A stretch of DNA of 64,000 bases from Deltaproteobacteria bacterium. GTDB lineage: Bacteria > Desulfobacterota > Binatia > Binatales > Binataceae. Made by a program: the position numbers and the translations under genes. Below the pieces are notes generated by a model. It was not told the origin of the DNA. It saw nothing but the letters and a program-made list of their open reading frames with translations, and did no database searches. The stretch spans positions 31,888 to 95,887 of the forward strand of contig JAJXYF010000014.1 of the NCBI GenBank assembly GCA_021780755.1, written 5' to 3'. The number at the start of each line of letters is the position of its first letter. The first letter of the stretch is position 1. Positions 2 to 14,709 of this stretch are shown piece by piece.

Positions 2-607
2 CTTTATGCCGACCTCATCGGCCATTGGAAGAAACGCAACGCGTCGGCGCTCGCCGAGGTCGATCCCGCCAACCTCGATCGCCAGCAACTGGGCGAGTTG
101 CTCCGTGAATACGCGGGCGGCGCGTGGGCCGATCGGTTGAACGAATACAAGCTGGTGCCCGAGGGCGAGGCGGCGGCCGCGGCGTGGGCGGCGCGGGGTG
201 CGGCGGTGATCGATGACTACGCCGCGTGCGGCCTCGCGCAGGGGCGCGACATCCGCGATTTGTTCACGCGCAATTTCTATTTCGGCTGCGAGGCCGACGA
301 TCCGGCCAACGCGTGGGGCTTCAACGCGAAGGTCAATCCCTACGGCGCCAGGCTCAAGACGCTGTTCGGCTCCGACATCGGCCATTTCGACGTGCCCGAC
401 ATGCGTGCGGTGCTGGGCGAGGCGCATGAACTGGTTGACGACGGACTGATCACGCGCGACGACTTCCGCGACTTCGTCTTCACCTGGCCGGTGGAATTCT
501 GGGGCGGCACGAATCCGGACTTCTTCAAAGGCACCGCGGTCGAGGGCGCGGCGCGCAAACTGATCGGGACGATTGCGGACGGCGAAGTGATGGTCAGCCC
601 GCGTTAG
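2..607 (+). CDS. amidohydrolase-2 family metal-dependent hydrolase, C-terminal portion (5-prime end lies outside window)
   Basis: Frame is open from the window edge with no upstream stop. C-terminal LFGSDIGHFDV-type motif is typical of TIM-barrel amidohydrolase_2 proteins. Stop at 605-607. Confidence 0.45.
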   Translation, partial: LYADLIGHWKKRNASALAEVDPANLDRQQLGELLREYAGGAWADRLNEYKLVPEGEAAAAAWAARGAAVIDDYAACGLAQGRDIRDLFTRNFYFGCEADDPANAWGFNAKVNPYGARLKTLFGSDIGHFDVPDMRAVLGEAHELVDDGLITRDDFRDFVFTWPVEFWGGTNPDFFKGTAVEGAARKLIGTIADGEVMVSPR

Positions 608-648
608 TCGCCGGGTTGGGCGCTTCGCGTTGGACGAAGGGGGCAGGG

Positions 649-2010
649 TCAGGAAATCCGCGGCGAAGCGAGCGGCAGGGTCACGACGAATTCGCAGCCG
701 CCGCGATCGCGATTGGTGGCGGTGATGGTGCCGTGATGCAGCCGCGCGATTTCGCGGCAGAGACTCAGCCCGAGACCGTGGCCGGATTCGGCGCGCGCTT
801 TGCCGCGAAAGAAGCGATCGAAGATGAAGGGGAGGTCGGCGGGCGGGATGCCCGGGCCGCTATCGGCAACGCGCAGGATGGCGTGAGCGTCGCGCGCGGT
901 GACGCCGATACTGACCTGCCCATGCGCGGGCGTGAATTTGATCGCGTTGTCGAGCAGATTGATGACGAGCCGCTTCAAGTGGAGCGGATTGCAATCGATC
1001 ACGACGGCGCCGGCGGTCTCGACCGCGAGCGTGAGTTGCTTCGCCTGCACCAGTGGTTCGACCGCCTCGACGACTTCGTGAACCAGCGCGGCGAGGTCCA
1101 TGCGCTCGCGATCCAGCGCCGCCTCCTGATCGAGCCGGGCAAGCGTGAGCAACCGATCGGCGATCGTACACAGGGCGACGACTTCGGCGAGCGCCGCCGC
1201 CAGCGCTTCGGCATACGCGACAGGCGATCGATCGTGAGCGAGCGCGACTTCGAGGCCGGTGCGCAACACGGCGAGCGGGGTGCGCAATTCGTGGGCGGCG
1301 TCGGCGGCGAAGCGGCGCTCGGTGTCGGTGGCGCGTTCGACGCGTTCGAGCAGCGCGTTGATGGCGCGGGTGAGGCGTGCGACCTCGTCGTTGATCGGGC
1401 CGGGGTCGAGGCGCCGGCTTAAATCACGCGGGTCGATGCGGGAGAGTTCGCCGGCCAGCGCGATCATCGGGACCAAGGCGCGGCCCGCGATCAGATAGCC
1501 GCCGGAAACGGCGACGATCAGAATCAGCGGCAGGATGAGCAGGAGGCTCGCGCGCAGCTTCGCGATGGATTTACGGATCGCGATCGCGTCAACGCCGTCT
1601 TCCAGAATGGCGGCGGCGCCCGCGAGCTGGAACGGGACGATCGCGAAGCGCAATTGCCCGCGCGCACCGTCGCGGACGCCGCGTTGAGGATGAACCGCGT
1701 CAAGCCGGGGCAAGTCCCCGGCGGTGTCGCCAAAGTCGGCGATGACGCGATCGCCGCTGACGATCCTGACGCGCCGGTGCGGTCCGAGATCGCGTTCGTC
1801 ACTGAGGTGGCGCACGATCGAATAGCCGGCGGCGCCCGGGCCGAGCCCGCTGATGGCGGTGGTGGCAGTGTCCGCTTCTTCAAGCAGGGCGGCGTCGAGC
1901 GCGCCCCATTGTTGACGCTCGAAAAGCAGGAAGACGGCGAGGCCGGCGACGATCAACAACGCGGCGATGATCAGCGCCCAGTAAATCGTGAGTCGGAGGC
2001 GGATGCTCAT
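649..2010 (-). CDS. sensor histidine kinase, CusS/CopS-like heavy-metal sensor architecture (TM-periplasmic-TM-HAMP-HisKA-HATPase)
   Basis: Two TM segments flank a periplasmic domain of about 130 aa. H-box AAHELRTPLAVL, N/G boxes (LLDNAIKFT, DSGPGIPPADLPFIFDRFFRG). Stop is 43 bp downstream of the regulator gene on the same strand. Confidence 0.9.
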   Translation of the reverse strand: MSIRLRLTIYWALIIAALLIVAGLAVFLLFERQQWGALDAALLEEADTATTAISGLGPGAAGYSIVRHLSDERDLGPHRRVRIVSGDRVIADFGDTAGDLPRLDAVHPQRGVRDGARGQLRFAIVPFQLAGAAAILEDGVDAIAIRKSIAKLRASLLLILPLILIVAVSGGYLIAGRALVPMIALAGELSRIDPRDLSRRLDPGPINDEVARLTRAINALLERVERATDTERRFAADAAHELRTPLAVLRTGLEVALAHDRSPVAYAEALAAALAEVVALCTIADRLLTLARLDQEAALDRERMDLAALVHEVVEAVEPLVQAKQLTLAVETAGAVVIDCNPLHLKRLVINLLDNAIKFTPAHGQVSIGVTARDAHAILRVADSGPGIPPADLPFIFDRFFRGKARAESGHGLGLSLCREIARLHHGTITATNRDRGGCEFVVTLPLASPRIS

Positions 2011-2052
2011 GCGAGGTTGTACGGCGACTTTCGAGAGCGGTGTATGGCGGTG

Positions 2053-2733
2053 CTAATGCGAGCGGATCGAATAGCCGACGCCGCGCACGGTGGCGATCGG
2101 CGAGTCGCCGGGGCCATCGCTGATTTTCTGGCGGAGGCGGTTGATGAAGACTTCGATGAGGTTGGTGAAGTCGTTGTAGCCTGTGCCCCACACGACTTCG
2201 GCGATCATGTCGCGGGTGACGGGCTGGCCGGCGTTGCGCATCAGCAGTTCGAGCAGGATAGCTTCCTTGGGCGAGAGCGCGAGGTCGCGGCCGTCGCGCA
2301 AGGCGCGCCGCCGCACGGTATCGAATTCGAGGCCGCCGGCCTTGAGCGTCGATTGAGTGCCGATGGTGCGGCGGCGAATCAACGCGCGCAGGCGTGCGAG
2401 TAACTCGGCGAAGGCGAACGGCTTGGTCAGGTAATCGTCGGCGCCGCTGTCCAATCCGATGACGCGATCGTCGAGCGAGCCGCGTGCGGTCAGCGCCAGC
2501 ACCGGAGTTGGGTTGCCGGCCGCGCGAATTTCGCGCAGGAAATCGATGCCGTCCTTTCCCGGGAGCCGCAAGTCGAGCACGATCGCGTCGAAGACCTGGT
2601 CCGCGAGGAGCCGCTCGGCGTGCTCGGCGCGGTCGGCGCAGGTAATCGTAAAGCCGTCTTCGGCGAGTCCGAGCCGCAGGCTTTTGCGCAGTTCGGCTTC
2701 GTCTTCAACGATGAGTAATCGCACGTCGCGCAT
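2053..2733 (-). CDS. OmpR-family response regulator, heavy-metal (CusR/CopR-like) subtype
   Basis: Receiver domain (LIVEDE...D...LPGKDG...K) plus winged-helix. C-terminal LTKPFAFAELLARLRALIRRR closely matches the CusR/CopR signature recalled from E. coli CusR. Confidence 0.9.
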   Translation of the reverse strand: MRDVRLLIVEDEAELRKSLRLGLAEDGFTITCADRAEHAERLLADQVFDAIVLDLRLPGKDGIDFLREIRAAGNPTPVLALTARGSLDDRVIGLDSGADDYLTKPFAFAELLARLRALIRRRTIGTQSTLKAGGLEFDTVRRRALRDGRDLALSPKEAILLELLMRNAGQPVTRDMIAEVVWGTGYNDFTNLIEVFINRLRQKISDGPGDSPIATVRGVGYSIRSH

Positions 2734-2856
2734 GGGGTGGTTGGCGGCGGTATCGCCGTCGATGAGCGAGACCCGACAACTATTGTGATGGAGGCGGGTG
2801 GATGCGGAAAGAGGGCATCGGAGCGGCTCCGGGTCTCGCCGGTACGCTTGAGGCCG

Positions 2857-3513
2857 CTAAATGATCAGCGAGAGCAGGCCGGCGGCAATCAGGGCGACGG
2901 CCCAGATGGTATCGAGGTTGATCCACGCGCTGCGCAGGATTTGCAGGCCGATCCACTGGTAAACCGCGATCGCGACGGAGCCCATCACCAGCAGCATCGC
3001 ACCCGTGTGGACGAGCACGACCGCGATCGCCTGGATCAGGCCGAGATGGCCGTGGGCGGCGATGGTGGGCATGTGGTGATGATGCATCGCGGGCATCCCG
3101 GCGGCGCCCGCCGGCATGTCCATCAGGATGGGAAAGAGCATCAGGCCGGCGCCGTGAGCGGAGGCCATCAGGAAGGACCAGACCGCGAGGTCGCGTGCAT
3201 TGACGCGCATCGCGACCCACCGCGGATGCGCCTGCGGGCGCCATAGGCGGAAGAGTCCGAACGCAATCAAGGCGGTCGCGCCGAGCGGACGCAGGATCCA
3301 GAGGCCACTCGCCATCGCACCCGCGATTAGCGCGACGGCAAGGCCGACCGAAACCAGGTGGCCCGCCGCGATCGGCAGCAAGGCCTCGAAGACCTTGCCG
3401 CGTCGGCGCTCCTGCAGTCCGAGGGCGACGGCGAACAGCCAGCCCATCGACGGGTCGATGCCATGGTACGCGCCGAGGAACGCGACCGCGAGCCACGGCC
3501 ATGCGCCGGTCAC
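2857..3513 (-). CDS. polytopic membrane protein with Met/His-rich loop (MPAGAAGMPAMHHHHMPTIAAHGH); possible metal (Cu) handling
   Basis: About 6 hydrophobic helices. Probable GTG start at 3513..3511 overlapping the TGA of the upstream SBP56 gene (GTGA overlap), suggesting translational coupling. The longer track ORF (to 3687) would overlap the SBP56 CDS and is rejected. Confidence 0.55.
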   Translation of the reverse strand: MTGAWPWLAVAFLGAYHGIDPSMGWLFAVALGLQERRRGKVFEALLPIAAGHLVSVGLAVALIAGAMASGLWILRPLGATALIAFGLFRLWRPQAHPRWVAMRVNARDLAVWSFLMASAHGAGLMLFPILMDMPAGAAGMPAMHHHHMPTIAAHGHLGLIQAIAVVLVHTGAMLLVMGSVAIAVYQWIGLQILRSAWINLDTIWAVALIAAGLLSLII

Positions 3514-4901
3514 GGATAGCAGTAGGAGTCCGAGGAGGAGTCGCCACCCTCGAGGCGCAGTTGATGCGGGCGTTCGCCGGTAAATGGGATGAAGAAGTCG
3601 GGGTCGATGGTCATCGTGCCGTTGGGGGCGACGTTGACCAGCGAAATCCATCCGCGGATGCCCTCGGGGTAGAACGCTTTGTCCCACGCGCCGTATAGCG
3701 AATTGGTGACGTAGATGCGGCGGCCGTCGCGGCTGATCTCGAGCATCTGGGTGCCGCCGTTGAGCGCGCCGGCCTTGGGATGCGGGGCGTGGGTAACGAC
3801 GCCGCCGAAGCGCACGGCGCCGGTGAACTTCGGTTTGAAGGGATCGCTCACGTCGTACTGGCGTAATTCGCCGGTGCCGAAACAGGCCGCGTAAAGATAC
3901 CTGTCGTCGGTGCTGAGCGCGATCTCGGTGACCAGCGGCGGCACCGCCTTGAAGGCCTTGAGCGCCGGCGGCAGCAGCGCCGGGTCAGCGGGCTCCGCGG
4001 GAATGTCGATGACCTTGCGGACGTCCCAATCGCCCTTGTCGCGATGCCACATCCAGATCGACGCGGACAGGTCCTTGGTCGAAATCACCACGCAGACAAA
4101 GCCATAGGGTCGCGTGGGGTCATGCGCGGGGCGCAATTCGAGCACGAGTTGATGTTCCGCGCCGAGGTCCCAGGCCTTCAGATGGCGCCGGCGGCGGAGG
4201 TCCCATAGATGCAGGTGATGGCCGTACTTGCCCTGCACGAGCAGGTCAAGGTCGGGACCGGCCTCGATCATGTTGGGGGTGCCCCATTCGCTGGTGATGG
4301 CGACGTCGTAGCCGAGGTGCCACCAGAAATCGTAGCCGAGGAATTGCGGGCCGCGATCGACCTCCCAGCGGCCCAGCACGTCGAAGCTCTCATGGTCGAG
4401 CAGGAAGATGCCGCCCGGGCCGCCGCCTTGGGCATTGCCGAGGGCGCTCACGTAAATCGCATCGGGGCCGCAGTGAATCGTATGCGGCCGGCTGTAACCG
4501 GTGCGCGCCGCGATCTCCTCCGCTTCGATCACCTTGACGATCTTGGGATTGCGCGGATCGGGCTTGGTATCGATGATGTGGAGGCGCGACGATCGCAAAC
4601 CGGGCGCCAGCAGGTAGCGCCGCTCGACGTGCGGATGCGGTGCGTATGGGCAGAGCGCCGCGCTGCAGGCGTTCCAGCCGAAATGATGAATTTCATCGCC
4701 CACCCCCGGCATCTCAACGCGCCCCACGACCTGGCTGTAGCTCGACGATTGGGGATCGGTATCGATCACGCACATCGCGTCGTGCTTGCCGTTGGACGGA
4801 TCGGGATTGAAGACGCCGGCGTAGGCGAGCTTTTCGCGCGGACCTTCCGCAGCCATGCGGGGCGACGGATAAAAAGTCGGATCGGGTTTCCACAACGCCA
4901 T
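3510..4901 (-). CDS. selenium-binding protein 56 (SBP56) family protein / methanethiol oxidase-like, no signal peptide
   Basis: 464 aa from ATG 4901..4899 preceded by GGGAGG 8 nt upstream. N-terminus MALWKPDPTFYPSP and length match the SBP56 family. The track ORF's 116-aa N-terminal extension lacks an SD and family similarity. Confidence 0.8.
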   Translation of the reverse strand: MALWKPDPTFYPSPRMAAEGPREKLAYAGVFNPDPSNGKHDAMCVIDTDPQSSSYSQVVGRVEMPGVGDEIHHFGWNACSAALCPYAPHPHVERRYLLAPGLRSSRLHIIDTKPDPRNPKIVKVIEAEEIAARTGYSRPHTIHCGPDAIYVSALGNAQGGGPGGIFLLDHESFDVLGRWEVDRGPQFLGYDFWWHLGYDVAITSEWGTPNMIEAGPDLDLLVQGKYGHHLHLWDLRRRRHLKAWDLGAEHQLVLELRPAHDPTRPYGFVCVVISTKDLSASIWMWHRDKGDWDVRKVIDIPAEPADPALLPPALKAFKAVPPLVTEIALSTDDRYLYAACFGTGELRQYDVSDPFKPKFTGAVRFGGVVTHAPHPKAGALNGGTQMLEISRDGRRIYVTNSLYGAWDKAFYPEGIRGWISLVNVAPNGTMTIDPDFFIPFTGERPHQLRLEGGDSSSDSYCYP

Positions 4902-5160
4902 CTGGGATAACCTCCCACGTGCGAATTTGACGCCACGATAATGTTCTCGGCGTGCTCGTTCAATCCATACTCGGCCCCGCACGTCATTGCGAGCCGGCGT
5001 TATCGCGCCACGCGATTCGCCTTGCAATTTTGCCCGCGAGTATGGTGACGTGCGGCACAGCCTGCGGGCATCGATGAGTCGCTGCGGTGATTGAATGATC
5101 GAACGAGCGCATCTGACCAGACTCCGGTGGCACGGGGAGTCACTTCGACGGAGGTGAGCG

Positions 5161-5586
5161 ATGGAGGGAACCCGTAACCTGACGGCCTTGGCCGGACGAA
5201 TTCTGCTCGCGCTGATTTTCGTCCTGTCGGGCTTCGGCAAGCTGACCAATCTCGCGGGGACCGCCGGCTACATGGAGCACGCGGGAATGCCGCATGCGCT
5301 GGTGTATCCGGGGCTGCTCGCGAGCATCGCGGTGGAACTCGGGTTCGGCTTGCTGTTGATGATCGGATTCCGCGCGCGGATCGTCGCGCTGGTGATGTTC
5401 CTGTGGTTTATCCCGGTGACGATCCTGTTCCACTTCCTGCCCTGGCGCGAAGCCGTGGCCAGCGGCGACAAGATGGGCGCGATGATGCAGCAGATCAATT
5501 ACATGAAGAATATTTCGATCATGGGCGGGCTGCTGATGGTGGTGAGCTTCGGTGCGGGCGCATGGAGCGTTGACGGCGGAAAATAA
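5161..5586 (+). CDS. DoxX family membrane protein
   Basis: 141 aa, 4 TM helices, typical DoxX length and pattern. SD GGAGGTGA upstream. Divergent from the SBP56 gene. Confidence 0.75.
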   Translation: MEGTRNLTALAGRILLALIFVLSGFGKLTNLAGTAGYMEHAGMPHALVYPGLLASIAVELGFGLLLMIGFRARIVALVMFLWFIPVTILFHFLPWREAVASGDKMGAMMQQINYMKNISIMGGLLMVVSFGAGAWSVDGGK

Positions 5587-5672: not shown

Positions 5673-6005
5673 TTAGTTCGTGGCGGCCTGTCCGGTCGCG
5701 CCCTTGACCATCGTCTGCAGTTCGCCGGTCTCGTAAAGCTCGCGCACGATGTCGCAGCCGCCGACGAACTTGCCGTCGATATAGACCTGCGGAATCGTCG
5801 GCCAGTTGCTGTACGCCTTGACCTGGTCGCGCACCTCGGGATCCGACAGCACGTCCATCGTCTCGTAGGGCGCGCCCAGTTGCTCGAAGATCTGCACCGT
5901 CGCCGCGGAAAATCCGCATTGCGGAAAATTGCGGTTGCCCTTCATGAAGATCATGACTTTGTTGCCGGCAATCGCCGACTTAATCCGGTCAAGCGCGTTC
6001 GCCAT
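5673..6005 (-). CDS. grxD: Grx4-family monothiol glutaredoxin
   Basis: CGFS active-site motif (PQCGFS), 110 aa, KGxxxxPxCGFS...WPTIPQ...GG(C)D signature. Confidence 0.9.
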   Translation of the reverse strand: MANALDRIKSAIAGNKVMIFMKGNRNFPQCGFSAATVQIFEQLGAPYETMDVLSDPEVRDQVKAYSNWPTIPQVYIDGKFVGGCDIVRELYETGELQTMVKGATGQAATN

Positions 6006-6013
6006 CGTAAACT

Positions 6014-6259
6014 CTACCTCCGATTCTGATATTGGGCCGGCGTCAGAGTCTTGAGCTGCAGCGCATGCACCCGCGCGCGCATCGCGTCGCCCAAGGTCGC
6101 GTAAACCACCTGATGTCGTTCGACCAGCCCCTTGCCCTCGAACTTGTCGCTCACCACCAGCGCCTCGAAATGGTCGCCGCCGCCGGTGGTGTCCTGCACC
6201 TCGACATGCGCGCCGGGCAGGCCGCGTTCGATCATCTGTTGCAATTCCGTCGGGTCCAT
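6014..6259 (-). CDS. BolA family protein
   Basis: 81 aa, BolA-like pattern (GGGDHFEALVVSDKF...H). Sits immediately upstream of grxD in the classic BolA-Grx pairing. Confidence 0.8.
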   Translation of the reverse strand: MDPTELQQMIERGLPGAHVEVQDTTGGGDHFEALVVSDKFEGKGLVERHQVVYATLGDAMRARVHALQLKTLTPAQYQNRR

Positions 6260-8553: not shown

Positions 8554-9756
8554 ATGAAGCCCGACGACAAGCCTCCGATTGACGCTACCGCACGCAAACC
8601 AATCGTACCCAATCGTCTGTATGCGCCCTACCTCGAAGCGTCGTGGGGCTTCAAGAACGCATGGTATCCGGCGCTTTTCAGCAGCGAAGTCGGCGAAAAT
8701 GAGGTCAAGGGCGTCACCATCGCGAGCCACGATATCGCGCTGCGCCGGGTGAAGGGGCGCGTGCACGCGATTCAGGATCGCTGTGCCCATCGCGGCGTCA
8801 AGATGTCGCTGCGGCCGACCTGCCTCACCGATGAAACCATCACCTGCTGGTATCACGGATTCACCTACGGGCTGAATGACGGCACCCTCAAGACCATCGT
8901 CGCGTCGCCCGACGATCCGCTGATTGGCCAGGTCCGCATCCGCACCTATCCGGTTGAGGAGCGCGCCGGAATCATCTTCGTTTTCGTCGGCGACGAGGAT
9001 TACGCGCCGGCGCCGCCGCTCACCGCCGACCTGCCGATTCAGATTACCGACGACGCGAATCCGGTCGCGCACATTCTCGATGCCCACGTTTACGTCCGCG
9101 GGATCCATCGCGAGGGCAACTCCAACTGGCGGATCGCGGTTGAAAACGGCTTCGACCCCGGCCATCTGCTGATTCATTGGGACAACGTCATCGTCGCGGC
9201 GACCGACCGGCGGATGGGCCTGGGCGCGCGCCCGATCGCCGAGGACGCGATCAAAATAATCGACGAGCCCAACGGTCCGCGCGGCATGATGAACATGTAC
9301 AACACGCGGGCGTACAAGTTCTTCATGGAAAACAAAGTTATCGGGATGAAGGCGCGCGGCAAGACGCCCTACTACGCGCGCACGTCGGTGTACCTGCCGG
9401 GGGTGCTGCTGGTCGAGCACTGGCCGGTGCCGGGATGGGCGCAATACGAATGGTACGTGCCGACCGACGACCGCCATCACGTTTATTGGGAGGTGCTGGT
9501 CGGTCATTGCCGCGACGACCAGGAGCGCCGCGAGGCGGACTATCTCTACGATCATTTTTTCGAGCCGCTGGCACTGCGCGATTTCAACGACAACGATGTT
9601 TTCGCGCGCGAGGCGATGCAGGATTTTTACGAGAATCGCGACGGCTGGAATGCCGAGACGCTGTGCGCGTTTGACGAATCGGTGATCATGTGGCGCAAGA
9701 TTGCGGCGCGCTTCAATCGCGGTATCCAGGACCCGCCGCATCGGCGCGGGCGCTGA
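8554..9756 (+). CDS. Rieske [2Fe-2S] non-heme iron oxygenase, alpha/catalytic subunit
   Basis: Rieske motif CAHRG...CWYHGF and mononuclear iron motif ENGFDPGHLLIHWDN. 400 aa. Confidence 0.85.
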   Translation: MKPDDKPPIDATARKPIVPNRLYAPYLEASWGFKNAWYPALFSSEVGENEVKGVTIASHDIALRRVKGRVHAIQDRCAHRGVKMSLRPTCLTDETITCWYHGFTYGLNDGTLKTIVASPDDPLIGQVRIRTYPVEERAGIIFVFVGDEDYAPAPPLTADLPIQITDDANPVAHILDAHVYVRGIHREGNSNWRIAVENGFDPGHLLIHWDNVIVAATDRRMGLGARPIAEDAIKIIDEPNGPRGMMNMYNTRAYKFFMENKVIGMKARGKTPYYARTSVYLPGVLLVEHWPVPGWAQYEWYVPTDDRHHVYWEVLVGHCRDDQERREADYLYDHFFEPLALRDFNDNDVFAREAMQDFYENRDGWNAETLCAFDESVIMWRKIAARFNRGIQDPPHRRGR

Positions 9757-13494: not shown

Positions 13495-14709
13495 CTAGCG
13501 CCGCCGCTGCCGGGCGCGGGCCGCCTGCTGGGCGCGCATCGCTTCGGCCGGGGTCATGATGAGGCGCGGCTCTTCGCGCTGATGCTGTTCCTCCTCGGCG
13601 ATAATCGCGCCGAGTTGTGCGCGCATGAAGGCCTGGAAAAACGCCCCGCGCTTCAAGTCCGCACCGTCGCGCAGGCGCGCCGCGGCGGCCGCCGCCCACG
13701 CCGCCTGCGGCCGGCGTCCGGTGCGTGCGAAGTAATACGCGGTGTCCTCCAGATGGCGACGCAGGCGCGTACCGATTTCACCCGCAAGCAACTCCGCGAT
13801 GGCGCGCTCGACGACGGTGGCCACGCGATCTTCCTGCTGCACGCGGCTCAGCACGATCACGCTGTTGCGCAGGCCCGCGATCTCGTCCGCATAGGGTTTT
13901 ACGATCGCCGGCGCGATCGGCCATGCGGCGATTTCCGGCTCCTGCATCAGATCGGCCGATGGCTCGTGCGTCAGTTCGGCGGCAAATTCGTCGTAAACCG
14001 GATGACTGAGATCGATCGGCGGCGACTGCGCGATCAGTTCGGTGCGAAGCGCGAAGAAATTGCCGACCTCGCCACGATGCGACTCGGGCGTGCGGCGCCA
14101 GGCGTCGCACAAGATGAAGTCGGCGACGCGCCAATCGGCGTCGATCAGCGAAACTCCGGCGCGCCGTTCGAGGTCCGCGCGCTCATGGCGCAGCTCTTTT
14201 CGCGTGAGTGGGGCGAGCGTGATGCCGAACAGACCGTCGCGCTCCGAGACCAGGCCCCACAAGCGCTTCAGCCCCGCGCCCGGGCGCGCCTTGACGATCC
14301 AGACGACGCGCGCGCCGTCGGCGTCGGCGGGCGAGAGCAGGGCGCTCAGGCCGATTTCAGGCGCTTGCGCGGCAGCGGTCGGAACGTCGCGCGCGGGCAA
14401 CTCAGCGAGCGGCCCCTCGATGCCGCGCTGGCGCAGCTTGAACAGCGCGCGGCGAAGCTCGCGGCGGAGCCCACCGGCCGCGCGCGTCTCCATCCGCATG
14501 AGCATCGCGGCGGACTCCGGAGTGGCGATGCTCGTGAGCGCGCGCACCAGCGCGGCGTCGGTGACGCCGGATGCGCCGCGCAAGGCCGTGAGCTTTGCGA
14601 TCGCGTCGGCCGGCGGCGCCGCCGGATCGAAGCCCGCTTCGCGCAGCTTCGCGTCTTCACCCGCGATATCCTTCGGAGAGGTTTCCTTTACGCTAGCCAT
14701 CTTCACCAA
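13495..14709 (-). CDS. hypothetical protein (Ala/Arg-rich, no recognised domain)
   Basis: 404-aa ORF with good coding periodicity on the minus strand, co-directional with the CoA-transferase. The antisense 878-aa ORF 12214..14850 is a GC artefact. Confidence 0.5.
   Translation of the reverse strand: MVKMASVKETSPKDIAGEDAKLREAGFDPAAPPADAIAKLTALRGASGVTDAALVRALTSIATPESAAMLMRMETRAAGGLRRELRRALFKLRQRGIEGPLAELPARDVPTAAAQAPEIGLSALLSPADADGARVVWIVKARPGAGLKRLWGLVSERDGLFGITLAPLTRKELRHERADLERRAGVSLIDADWRVADFILCDAWRRTPESHRGEVGNFFALRTELIAQSPPIDLSHPVYDEFAAELTHEPSADLMQEPEIAAWPIAPAIVKPYADEIAGLRNSVIVLSRVQQEDRVATVVERAIAELLAGEIGTRLRRHLEDTAYYFARTGRRPQAAWAAAAAARLRDGADLKRGAFFQAFMRAQLGAIIAEEEQHQREEPRLIMTPAEAMRAQQAARARQRRR

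Follow-up and report, generated by a model that had tools for sequence, protein, structure and literature searches.

Those members of the SELENBP1 clade of the SBP56 protein family that have been characterised oxidise methanethiol and other alkyl thiols in a copper-dependent manner. Such dependence has been shown for human SELENBP1, C. elegans SEMO-1, RdMTO and the Hyphomicrobium MtoX (PMC10362175, PMC13603461, PMC5739008), with RdMTO, from Roseobacter denitrificans, being a bacterial orthologue for which it has been demonstrated (PMC13603461). The genes of the periplasmic MtoX clade, represented by Hyphomicrobium sp. VS and Ruegeria pomeroyi, cluster with those for the copper chaperone SCO1/SenC and with mauG (PMC5739008). 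Here, we analyzed a stretch of 64,000 nucleotides of a deltaproteobacterial contig (JAJXYF010000014.1; hereafter, the window), whose relatives carry the label Candidatus Binataceae, and in which a gene for an SBP56 protein is translationally coupled to a gene for a membrane protein of 218 amino acids that belongs to an unnamed family. The two genes form a pair that is conserved over more than 10 phyla, and the membrane protein may be a permease that supplies the enzyme with its metal.

The locus resembles the mtoX-SCO1/senC-mauG cluster in that an SBP56-family oxidase, known to depend on copper in the one and putatively so in the other, is encoded beside a presumed copper supplier (PMC5739008). 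It differs from it in that MtoX is periplasmic and carries a signal peptide, which the SBP56 of the window lacks, and in that the partners of MtoX are a periplasmic chaperone and MauG, which acts in maturation of the tryptophan tryptophylquinone cofactor, whereas the partner in the window is an integral membrane protein. Closer to the window enzyme are SELENBP1, SEMO-1 and RdMTO, which belong to the same clade and share with it the full-length Pfam architecture, a copper pocket made up of HH, HxxH, Asp and Glu, and a cytoplasmic location (PMC10362175, PMC13603461). In the literature examined, no partner gene is described for these three proteins.

Metalloenzymes encoded together with a permease of their own are a known kind of arrangement, as exemplified by HupE with hydrogenase, UreJ/UreH with urease and NhlF with nitrile hydratase. 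The window locus is similar in that a small multi-helix membrane protein, here a candidate permease, is encoded beside the metalloenzyme that would be its client; if the analogy holds, the new elements would be the unnamed membrane family and a cytoplasmic cuproenzyme as the client. In contrast to HupE/UreJ, to which it bears no sequence relationship (a profile score of 13.5, that is, background), the membrane protein is proposed to carry another metal, and the client is a thiol oxidase. A further point of reference is CcoA, a 12-helix copper importer of the major facilitator superfamily that serves the cbb3 oxidase and whose gene does not lie beside that of its client. Compared by description, CcoA is like the proposed permease in being a secondary copper importer with membrane-embedded Met and His motifs that is dedicated to a specific cuproenzyme; it is unlike it in its superfamily and its 12 helices, and in having a client oxidase assembled in the membrane or periplasm, whereas the client proposed here is cytoplasmic.

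Bacteria are generally thought to exclude copper from the cytoplasm, which raises the question of how a cytoplasmic copper enzyme obtains its metal. A membrane partner that is near-obligate and translationally coupled gives direct access to this question. As copper-dependent methanethiol oxidases, SELENBP1-type enzymes are being studied actively, and they matter to human breath and gut sulfur metabolism, cancer biology, and marine and soil sulfur cycling. In a full-text search, incomplete in its coverage, the main SBP56/SELENBP1 literature contained no mention of a membrane partner or of the gene context of the cytoplasmic clade.

An SBP56 gene overlapping a membrane-protein gene

The locus comprises four minus-strand genes and a divergent DoxX gene, and the gene models were confirmed by a six-frame list of open reading frames (ORFs) and by the sequence itself. 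The SBP56 gene (3510..4901, minus strand) encodes 463 amino acids and is followed on the same strand by the membrane-protein gene (2857..3513), whose six-helix product has 218 residues. The GTG start codon of the latter lies at 3513..3511 and has its final TG in common with the SBP56 stop codon TGA, so that a GTGA overlap (3510..3513, minus strand) can be read directly in the sequence ('ccGTGAcc'). This start is correct, given that the homologues measure 214–220 amino acids and that the source contig carries the same gene call in the public record. A preliminary description of the locus had placed a kinase gene, a regulator gene, the membrane-protein gene and the SBP56 gene in a row on the minus strand, with the GTG of the third overlapping the stop of the fourth, and all of these features were recovered here at the positions given.

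The pair is conserved across phyla

In a degenerate-pattern scan over one genome per species, the membrane protein had 595 relatives, of which the best 80 were fetched; together with six loci obtained by exact protein look-up, these constitute the set of 86 loci used below. SBP56 is a same-strand neighbour of the membrane-protein gene in 85 of the 86. It lies directly upstream in 84, the order being reversed in a single case (L080), and the sole exception (L011) is a locus cut off by the end of its contig. The 4-bp overlap of stop and start codons is present in 44/85 loci, and the gap between both genes does not exceed 25 nt in 66/85. The hosts comprise Binataceae, Chloroflexota (including Dehalococcoidia), Actinomycetota, Poribacteria, Verrucomicrobiota, Acidobacteriota, Myxococcota, Gemmatimonadota, Deinococcota and Pseudomonadota, and the taxa recorded also include Thermoleophilia/Solirubrobacterales, Sorangium, Dormibacterota, Marinobacterium and Thermalbibacter. 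Altogether, the pair spreads over more than 10 phyla.

A similar picture emerged from a plasmid collection, in which the membrane protein was found in 58 records and SBP56 in 71, and in which all 44 records common to both listings show the pair. Starting from the enzyme, 44 of the 47 listed plasmid SBP56 records with at least 50% identity carry the membrane-protein gene on the same strand, 0–268 nt downstream; of the three that do not, two are Streptomyces plasmids and the third has a truncated SBP56. The association is reciprocal, and the adjacency of the two genes is far above chance. Replicons with annotation from Azospirillum brasilense, Deinococcus ficus, Phaeobacter piscinae and Rhizobium leguminosarum likewise contain the pair, among neighbours that are otherwise unrelated. 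Clustering of all ORFs around 87 loci revealed no third universal gene beside the pair, and the SCO1 and MauG Pfam families were neither found among the called genes of the window within 10 kb on either side nor recurrent in these 87 loci.

The functional unit is a two-gene operon consisting of SBP56 and the membrane-protein gene. The translational coupling put forward in the preliminary description is borne out by the 4-bp overlap both in the window and in about half of the loci, and the pairing it had singled out recurs across phyla. This coupling of an enzyme to a membrane protein is real and ancient, and apparently undescribed. Genetically tractable bacteria with the pair include Azospirillum brasilense (strain MTCC4039, plasmid p3, genes D3869_RS29250 and D3869_RS29255), Sinorhizobium fredii NGR234, Rhizobium leguminosarum (strain 248) and Phaeobacter piscinae (strain P14).

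A second SBP56 clade, 37–43% identical to the SBP56 of the window and represented by plasmid records of haloarchaea, Rubrobacter, Paracoccus and Phaeobacter inhibens, does not have the membrane partner, an absence established by direct inspection of the locus for Rubrobacter only; the presence of the partner may therefore mark SBP56 clades apart. The Paracoccus species is Paracoccus seriniphilus, and in Rubrobacter radiotolerans (L093) a small soluble protein is encoded downstream of the SBP56 gene. Whatever its function, the membrane family could be named 'SBP56-associated membrane protein', and the pair could be used to separate SBP56 clades in genomes.

The two Streptomyces plasmids encode an SBP56 that is 55–56% identical to that of the window and no 218-residue partner, and a different membrane ORF is located directly downstream, with sub-threshold matches to ZIP/ZupT (Pfam, E 0.001; NCBIfam, E 0.0018). 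It may represent a non-orthologous replacement by another metal permease, at scores too low to rely on. The ORFs concerned are located at L102:3989-4840 (Streptomyces sp. NBC_01450, NZ_CP109481.1) and at L092:5475-5948 and 6039-6257 (Streptomyces sp. Caat 7-52), and in one of the two strains the downstream ORF appears to be split. Two Agrobacterium larrymoorei plasmids (NZ_CP072169.1, around 220764-221716, and NZ_CP039694.1) carry the membrane-protein gene beside a C-terminal SBP56 fragment only (26% of the query), which looks like an enzyme gene in decay with its partner still kept. Two apparent fusions of both proteins (P0252 and P0208) were discarded, since a frameshift in the gene call seems to have fused the tail of SBP56, read out of frame, with the membrane protein; the remaining long members of the membrane family owe their length to long loop inserts only.

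The SBP56 is of the cytoplasmic type and retains the copper pocket

The SBP56 of the window matches PF05694 over its full length (residues 5–461 on model positions 2–453 of 453; 599 bits) and the solved Sulfolobus tokodaii protein 2ECE from residue 4 onwards (E 1.4e-190). We regard it as devoid of a signal peptide because it shows no N-terminal extension relative to 2ECE. The N-terminus (MALWKPDPTFYPSPR) contains no hydrophobic stretch and the homology to Pfam and to 2ECE sets in at residues 4–5, in agreement with the cytoplasmic location that had previously been assigned to the protein. Furthermore, the MtoX equivalog of NCBIfam (NF052453) was not reached by this SBP56, which scored 108.7 bits against a cut-off of 650. 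Judged by these comparisons, the enzyme is of the cytoplasmic SELENBP1 type and not of the periplasmic MtoX type.

The residues H72/H73 (IHHFGW), H140/H143 (HTIHC), D191 (GYDFWW) and E255 (LVLELR) are invariant in 82 partnered SBP56 proteins, as are C144 and C461. By motif and near-identical numbering, the former were matched to His73/74, His137/140, Asp189 and Glu252 of human SELENBP1, in which mutation of any of these positions nearly abolishes methanethiol oxidase activity and in which the copper content is also lowered when His137, His140, Asp189 or Glu252 is mutated (PMC10362175). The window SBP56 is described here as a putative copper-dependent thiol/methanethiol oxidase.

Unlike SELENBP1, SEMO-1 and RdMTO, the partnered clade is characterised by a C-terminal Cys tail of the form [YF]C[YF][PS], with an invariant Cys three residues from the C-terminus (82 proteins aligned; 3510-3530 in the window), and the position of human Cys466 (GGDCSSD) is occupied by Ala or Ser in 72/82. 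The codons of this tail immediately precede the start of the membrane-protein gene, which the SBP56 stop codon overlaps.

The membrane protein belongs to a large, unnamed family with conserved intramembrane His and Met

No Pfam or NCBIfam match at E ≤ 10 was obtained for the membrane protein of the window, and when 28 diverse members of its family were scanned individually against Pfam, no consistent family appeared at that threshold. Likewise, a profile search of the PDB with the membrane family returned nothing at E ≤ 10, and Foldseek found no match in the PDB for the structural model (best E 0.41). The family is large, with at least 7,901 relatives in a collection clustered at 90% and 2,026 clusters at 50% identity. 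Where its members carry any source annotation, this is 'hypothetical protein', also in RefSeq records of cultured bacteria.

The AlphaFold2 model (predicted local distance difference test, 86.7; predicted template modelling score, 0.83) places helices at residues 5-35, 38-68, 74-91, 106-132, 159-188 and 200-217. Helices 1 and 4 are broken in the model, at residues 20-24 and 120-123, and these breaks fall on the two most conserved motifs of the family, LGAYHGxNPxMGW (His17, Pro21, Met23, Trp25) and WSFLMASAHGAGLMxxP (Met116, His120, Met125, Pro128). In addition, His52 is situated in the middle of helix 2 and His169 one third into helix 5. Model and alignment together put four of the near-invariant His close to the midpoint of the helix that bears them. 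In an alignment of 108 sequences, His17, His52, His96, His120, His169, Met23, Met125, Asn199, Asp201 and three Trp are conserved to at least 96%. A comparison of the N-terminal with the C-terminal half by hhalign gave no significant internal 3+3 repeat (E 0.15), though His52 was paired with His169.

Lys and Arg are gathered in loops 1-2, 3-4 and 5-6 and are nearly absent from the N-terminus and from loops 2-3 and 4-5. Following the positive-inside rule, both termini and loop 4-5 are therefore predicted to lie outside the cytoplasm. In the window protein, this loop between helices 4 and 5 is the His/Met-rich stretch MPAGAAGMPAMHHHHMPTIAAHGH (residues 133-156; 3046..3117, minus strand), present as initially noted, and across the family it measures 10-44 amino acids with on average 2.8 His and 1.95 Met, at least two His being found in 82/108 members.

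With regard to described transporters, the preliminary description had suggested HupE/UreJ, DUF4396 or CopD as possible assignments, none of which was sustained. HupE/UreJ (PF04955) gave no Pfam match at E ≤ 10, and a profile built from five annotated plasmid genes scored at the background level mentioned above (13.5; E 0.37); CopD and DUF4396 were absent from the Pfam matches at E ≤ 10 for the 28 members. A resemblance of helix 1 to E. coli RcnA (LLGALHGLEPGH) prompted a profile comparison by hhalign. The comparators were E. coli RcnA, NcrC, a Ralstonia protein and a Marinibacterium protein, a set of four that reflects the outcome of a broader homologue search for RcnA, which gave only near-identical E. 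coli clusters; these carry PF03824, PF13386 and PF11139. The family profile aligned with RcnA over helices 1-3 (E 0.0027, probability 11%), with the HG..P motif (HGxNP) paired with HGLEP and His52 with the helix-2 His of RcnA. Each of the four RcnA-type proteins scored 27-29, and with the small profile made from all four a score of 30 was reached (E 0.0019, probability 14%), the alignment then extending to helices 5-6. As controls, 86 unrelated multi-helix ORFs from the same loci gave a mean of 14.0 (standard deviation, 3.3) and a maximum of 26.2. Because the RcnA-type scores are just above that of the best control, we treat the relationship suggested by these profiles as a lead and not as membership.

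The proteins of the RcnA/NcrC type (NicO, PF03824) resemble the membrane family in having six helices and a His-rich loop, and in the profile comparison the helix-1 motif LGAxHGxxP and a conserved His of helix 2 align between the two families. They differ from it in the position of the His-rich loop, which in RcnA connects helices 3 and 4 and in the new family connects helices 4 and 5 on what is predicted to be the outer face; in gene context, since RcnA genes are found beside an RcnR/CsoR-type repressor gene and not beside an enzyme; and in the conserved Met, which are exclusive to the new family.

A candidate metal permease for a cytoplasmic oxidase

We propose that the coupled gene encodes an inner-membrane permease that would import the metal of SBP56, most likely Cu(I). 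The ion would be caught by the outward-facing His/Met-rich loop and would then pass through a central site of four His and two or three Met near mid-membrane, formed by His17 and Met23 of the broken helix 1, His52 of helix 2, Met116, His120 and Met125 of the broken helix 4 and His169 of helix 5. At the cytoplasmic face, His96, Asn199 and Asp201 could release it to newly made SBP56. Gene models, translational coupling, conservation of the pair and of single residues, predicted topology and an unaltered copper pocket of the enzyme are what the analysis shows, whereas transport, its direction, the metal and its delivery to SBP56 are inferred. We judge this explanation, an enzyme with a dedicated permease that most likely imports Cu(I) for a cytoplasmic oxidase, to be roughly balanced between holding and failing. 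A role of the membrane protein in metal handling, as proposed earlier, is accordingly plausible in view of the intramembrane His and Met, the outward His/Met loop and the weak similarity to RcnA, and it stands as an interpretation of these features. More tentative, and on our estimate rather apt to fail, is a stronger version, in which the 218-residue protein would found a new family of Cu(I) importers with the sole task of metallating cytoplasmic SELENBP1-type thiol oxidases, the Cys tail possibly being a docking or receiving element. If this stronger version were true, it would constitute the first dedicated copper-supply route for a bacterial cytoplasmic enzyme, kept from Binataceae to rhizobia, roseobacters, Deinococcus and Sorangium.

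Several observations weigh against this proposal. The similarity to RcnA/NicO is weak (E 0.002-0.004, probability 9-14%, scores of 27-30 against 26.2 for the best control), and neither the window protein nor the 28 diverse members matched the Pfam NicO family (PF03824) at E ≤ 10; moreover, since RcnA is an exporter, homology to it would not settle the direction of transport. The ZIP matches of the Streptomyces ORFs fall under the curated thresholds. The sequence of loop 4-5 is unconserved, and 8/108 members have no His in it at all. Copper as the metal is inferred solely from the enzyme literature and from the set of His and Met ligands, and the strict coupling of the two genes could equally fit a stoichiometric membrane partner with a different role.

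One such role would be that of a redox or anchoring partner, whose His would bind haem or quinone and which would pass the electrons of thiol oxidation to the respiratory chain instead of to O2, by analogy with the MsrP/MsrQ pair. The near 1:1 pairing and the translational coupling, both suggestive of a stoichiometric complex, are compatible with it, as are the five near-invariant His in or near the membrane and the lack of detectable membership in a transporter family; in Binataceae, the pair also adjoins DoxX, of a family linked to quinone-dependent sulfur oxidation. The arrangement of the His speaks against this role: there is one conserved His per helix, near the mid-membrane plane, and two of them sit at breaks within Gly/Pro-rich motifs, a geometry that fits an ion site and is unlike the paired bis-His ligation of two haems in membrane cytochromes b. 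Such a partner would leave the variable outward His/Met loop with no obvious function, DoxX is unconserved beyond Binataceae, and in Methylacidiphilum the methanethiol-degrading activity was recovered entirely in the soluble fraction, in a study that does not report on the status of the partner gene (PMC9003020). Altogether, we consider a redox partner improbable.

The adjacent two-component system is a lineage-specific neighbour

Downstream of the pair, and separated from it by a spacer of 123 nt (2734..2856, minus strand), lie the genes for an OmpR-family response regulator of 226 amino acids (2053..2733, minus strand; Response_reg and Trans_reg_C domains) and for a sensor histidine kinase of 453 amino acids (649..2010, minus strand; HAMP, HisKA and HATPase_c domains). 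In the kinase, a sensor of about 120 residues lies between two membrane segments and precedes HAMP, HisKA and HATPase_c, which agrees with the periplasmic-sensing architecture described before. We weighed whether all four genes form one copper-responsive unit in this lineage, in which a CusRS-like system would sense periplasmic copper and control the SBP56 operon.

The heavy-metal subfamilies are the top NCBIfam matches for both proteins, and homologues of the regulator and the kinase, merely 46-63% identical, are retained behind the pair in 11 of the fetched loci, all of them from Binataceae (L015-L024 and L026). Nevertheless, the scores fall short of the curated cut-offs, with 208 bits against 279.2 for the regulator (TIGR01387) and 228 bits against 292.55 for the kinase (TIGR01386), the latter match covering residues 146-446 only and leaving out the sensor domain. 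In the periplasmic sensor itself, no His, Met or Cys is shared by all 10 orthologues compared, and the genes called up to 10 kb to each side of SBP56 include none for copper/silver efflux or for a copper oxidase (multicopper oxidase). Of the 'CusR/CopR-like' label given to the regulator in the preliminary description, the best family match persists, below its cut-off; the broader designation of the system as one of heavy-metal type finds no backing in the scores, the sensor or the nearby genes. A unit of four genes is likewise not retained, given that the system follows the pair in only these 11 loci and the window and is missing in the closest relative of the window (L005/L007, SBP56 94% identical).

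The spacer contains a long hairpin (GCGAGACCCGG...CGGGUCUCGC) with a folding energy of -47 kcal/mol (z -3.46 against shuffled sequences), and it lacks a T tract; consensus scans of positions 500-5300, which include it, revealed neither promoters nor terminators. This structured stretch sets the system apart from the pair. A possible regulatory link lies upstream of SBP56, where a 16-nt motif with the consensus AAATGCAAGGTGAAAT occurs 102–128 nt before the SBP56 start in the window and in four other loci with the two-component system (L015, L018, L023 and L024, there at -102 to -123) and is absent at that position from 66 loci without it. The corresponding sequence of the window, AATTGCAAGGCGAATC (5014..5029, minus strand; 128 nt upstream of the start), deviates from the consensus at 4 of 16 positions, for which we estimate a chance of about 0.01. 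Since the four loci are closely related, shared descent may explain the motif, which, going by its sequence and position, may thus be either a candidate binding site of the regulator, and then a weak lead, or a sign of common ancestry. For these reasons, a copper-responsive unit of four genes is unlikely in our view. The two-component system is a lineage-specific neighbour and not part of the conserved pair, and it may regulate the operon within the Binataceae lineage.

Direction of transport and identity of the metal

An exporter would reverse the direction proposed above, and would either remove metal, in an RcnA-like protection, or remove a charged product of SBP56 such as sulfane sulfur or sulfite. 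The only detectable similarity of the membrane family, weak as it is, is to the efflux proteins RcnA and NcrC, and according to one study the methanethiol oxidases of Rhodobacteraceae yield sulfane sulfur, a product unable to cross membranes (PMC10936201). What speaks against an exporter is, first, the predicted position of the His/Met-rich loop on the outer face. The His-rich loop of RcnA, in comparison, is cytoplasmic. A metal exporter tied to an enzyme that needs the same metal has no obvious logic, and His and Met ligands are ill-suited to sulfur oxyanions or polysulfides. Finally, an RcnR/CsoR-type repressor gene adjoins each of the fetched RcnA-type genes, and none was found beside the pair in the inspected loci. 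We therefore regard export as decidedly unlikely.

A combination of Met and His is typical of Cu(I) sites, and three conserved Met stand beside conserved His in the membrane protein. Import of another metal for SBP56 (Ni, Co, Zn, Fe or Mn), with a native metal in this clade that would differ from that of the human enzyme, is thus quite improbable as well, even though the weak similarity points to Ni/Co transporters, the possible Streptomyces replacement is ZIP-like, of a family whose substrates are mostly divalent Zn, Fe or Mn, and the His, Asp and Glu of the active site would also suit divalent ions, because copper dependence has been shown for SELENBP1, SEMO-1, RdMTO and Hyphomicrobium MtoX (PMC10362175, PMC13603461, PMC5739008).

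DoxX and other neighbouring genes

Divergent from SBP56, and separated from it by an intergenic spacer of 259 bp, is a gene for a DoxX-family membrane protein (5161..5586, plus strand; PF07681, E 5.8e-14), whose presence had been noted earlier. It is found upstream of SBP56 in Binataceae loci only. Further on, genes for a monothiol CGFS glutaredoxin (5673-6005, minus strand) and for BolA (6014-6259, minus strand) lie side by side; the two proteins are known as a pair for the handling of Fe-S clusters. In many Binataceae loci, but not elsewhere, their genes keep synteny with those for DoxX and SBP56. DoxX, glutaredoxin and BolA were consequently rejected as parts of the system, being neighbours in Binataceae only.

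An Rfam scan of the whole window returned tRNAs only. A 96-nt tRNA-His called by ARAGORN at 14550-14645 (plus strand) was not reported by the Rfam tRNA model at its gathering score and is probably either a false positive or an unusual gene. At a distance of a few kb from the locus, the window encodes a Rieske/aromatic-ring hydroxylase and a ferredoxin reductase (8554-9756, plus strand, and neighbours; L106:4052-6348), both unrelated to the pair.

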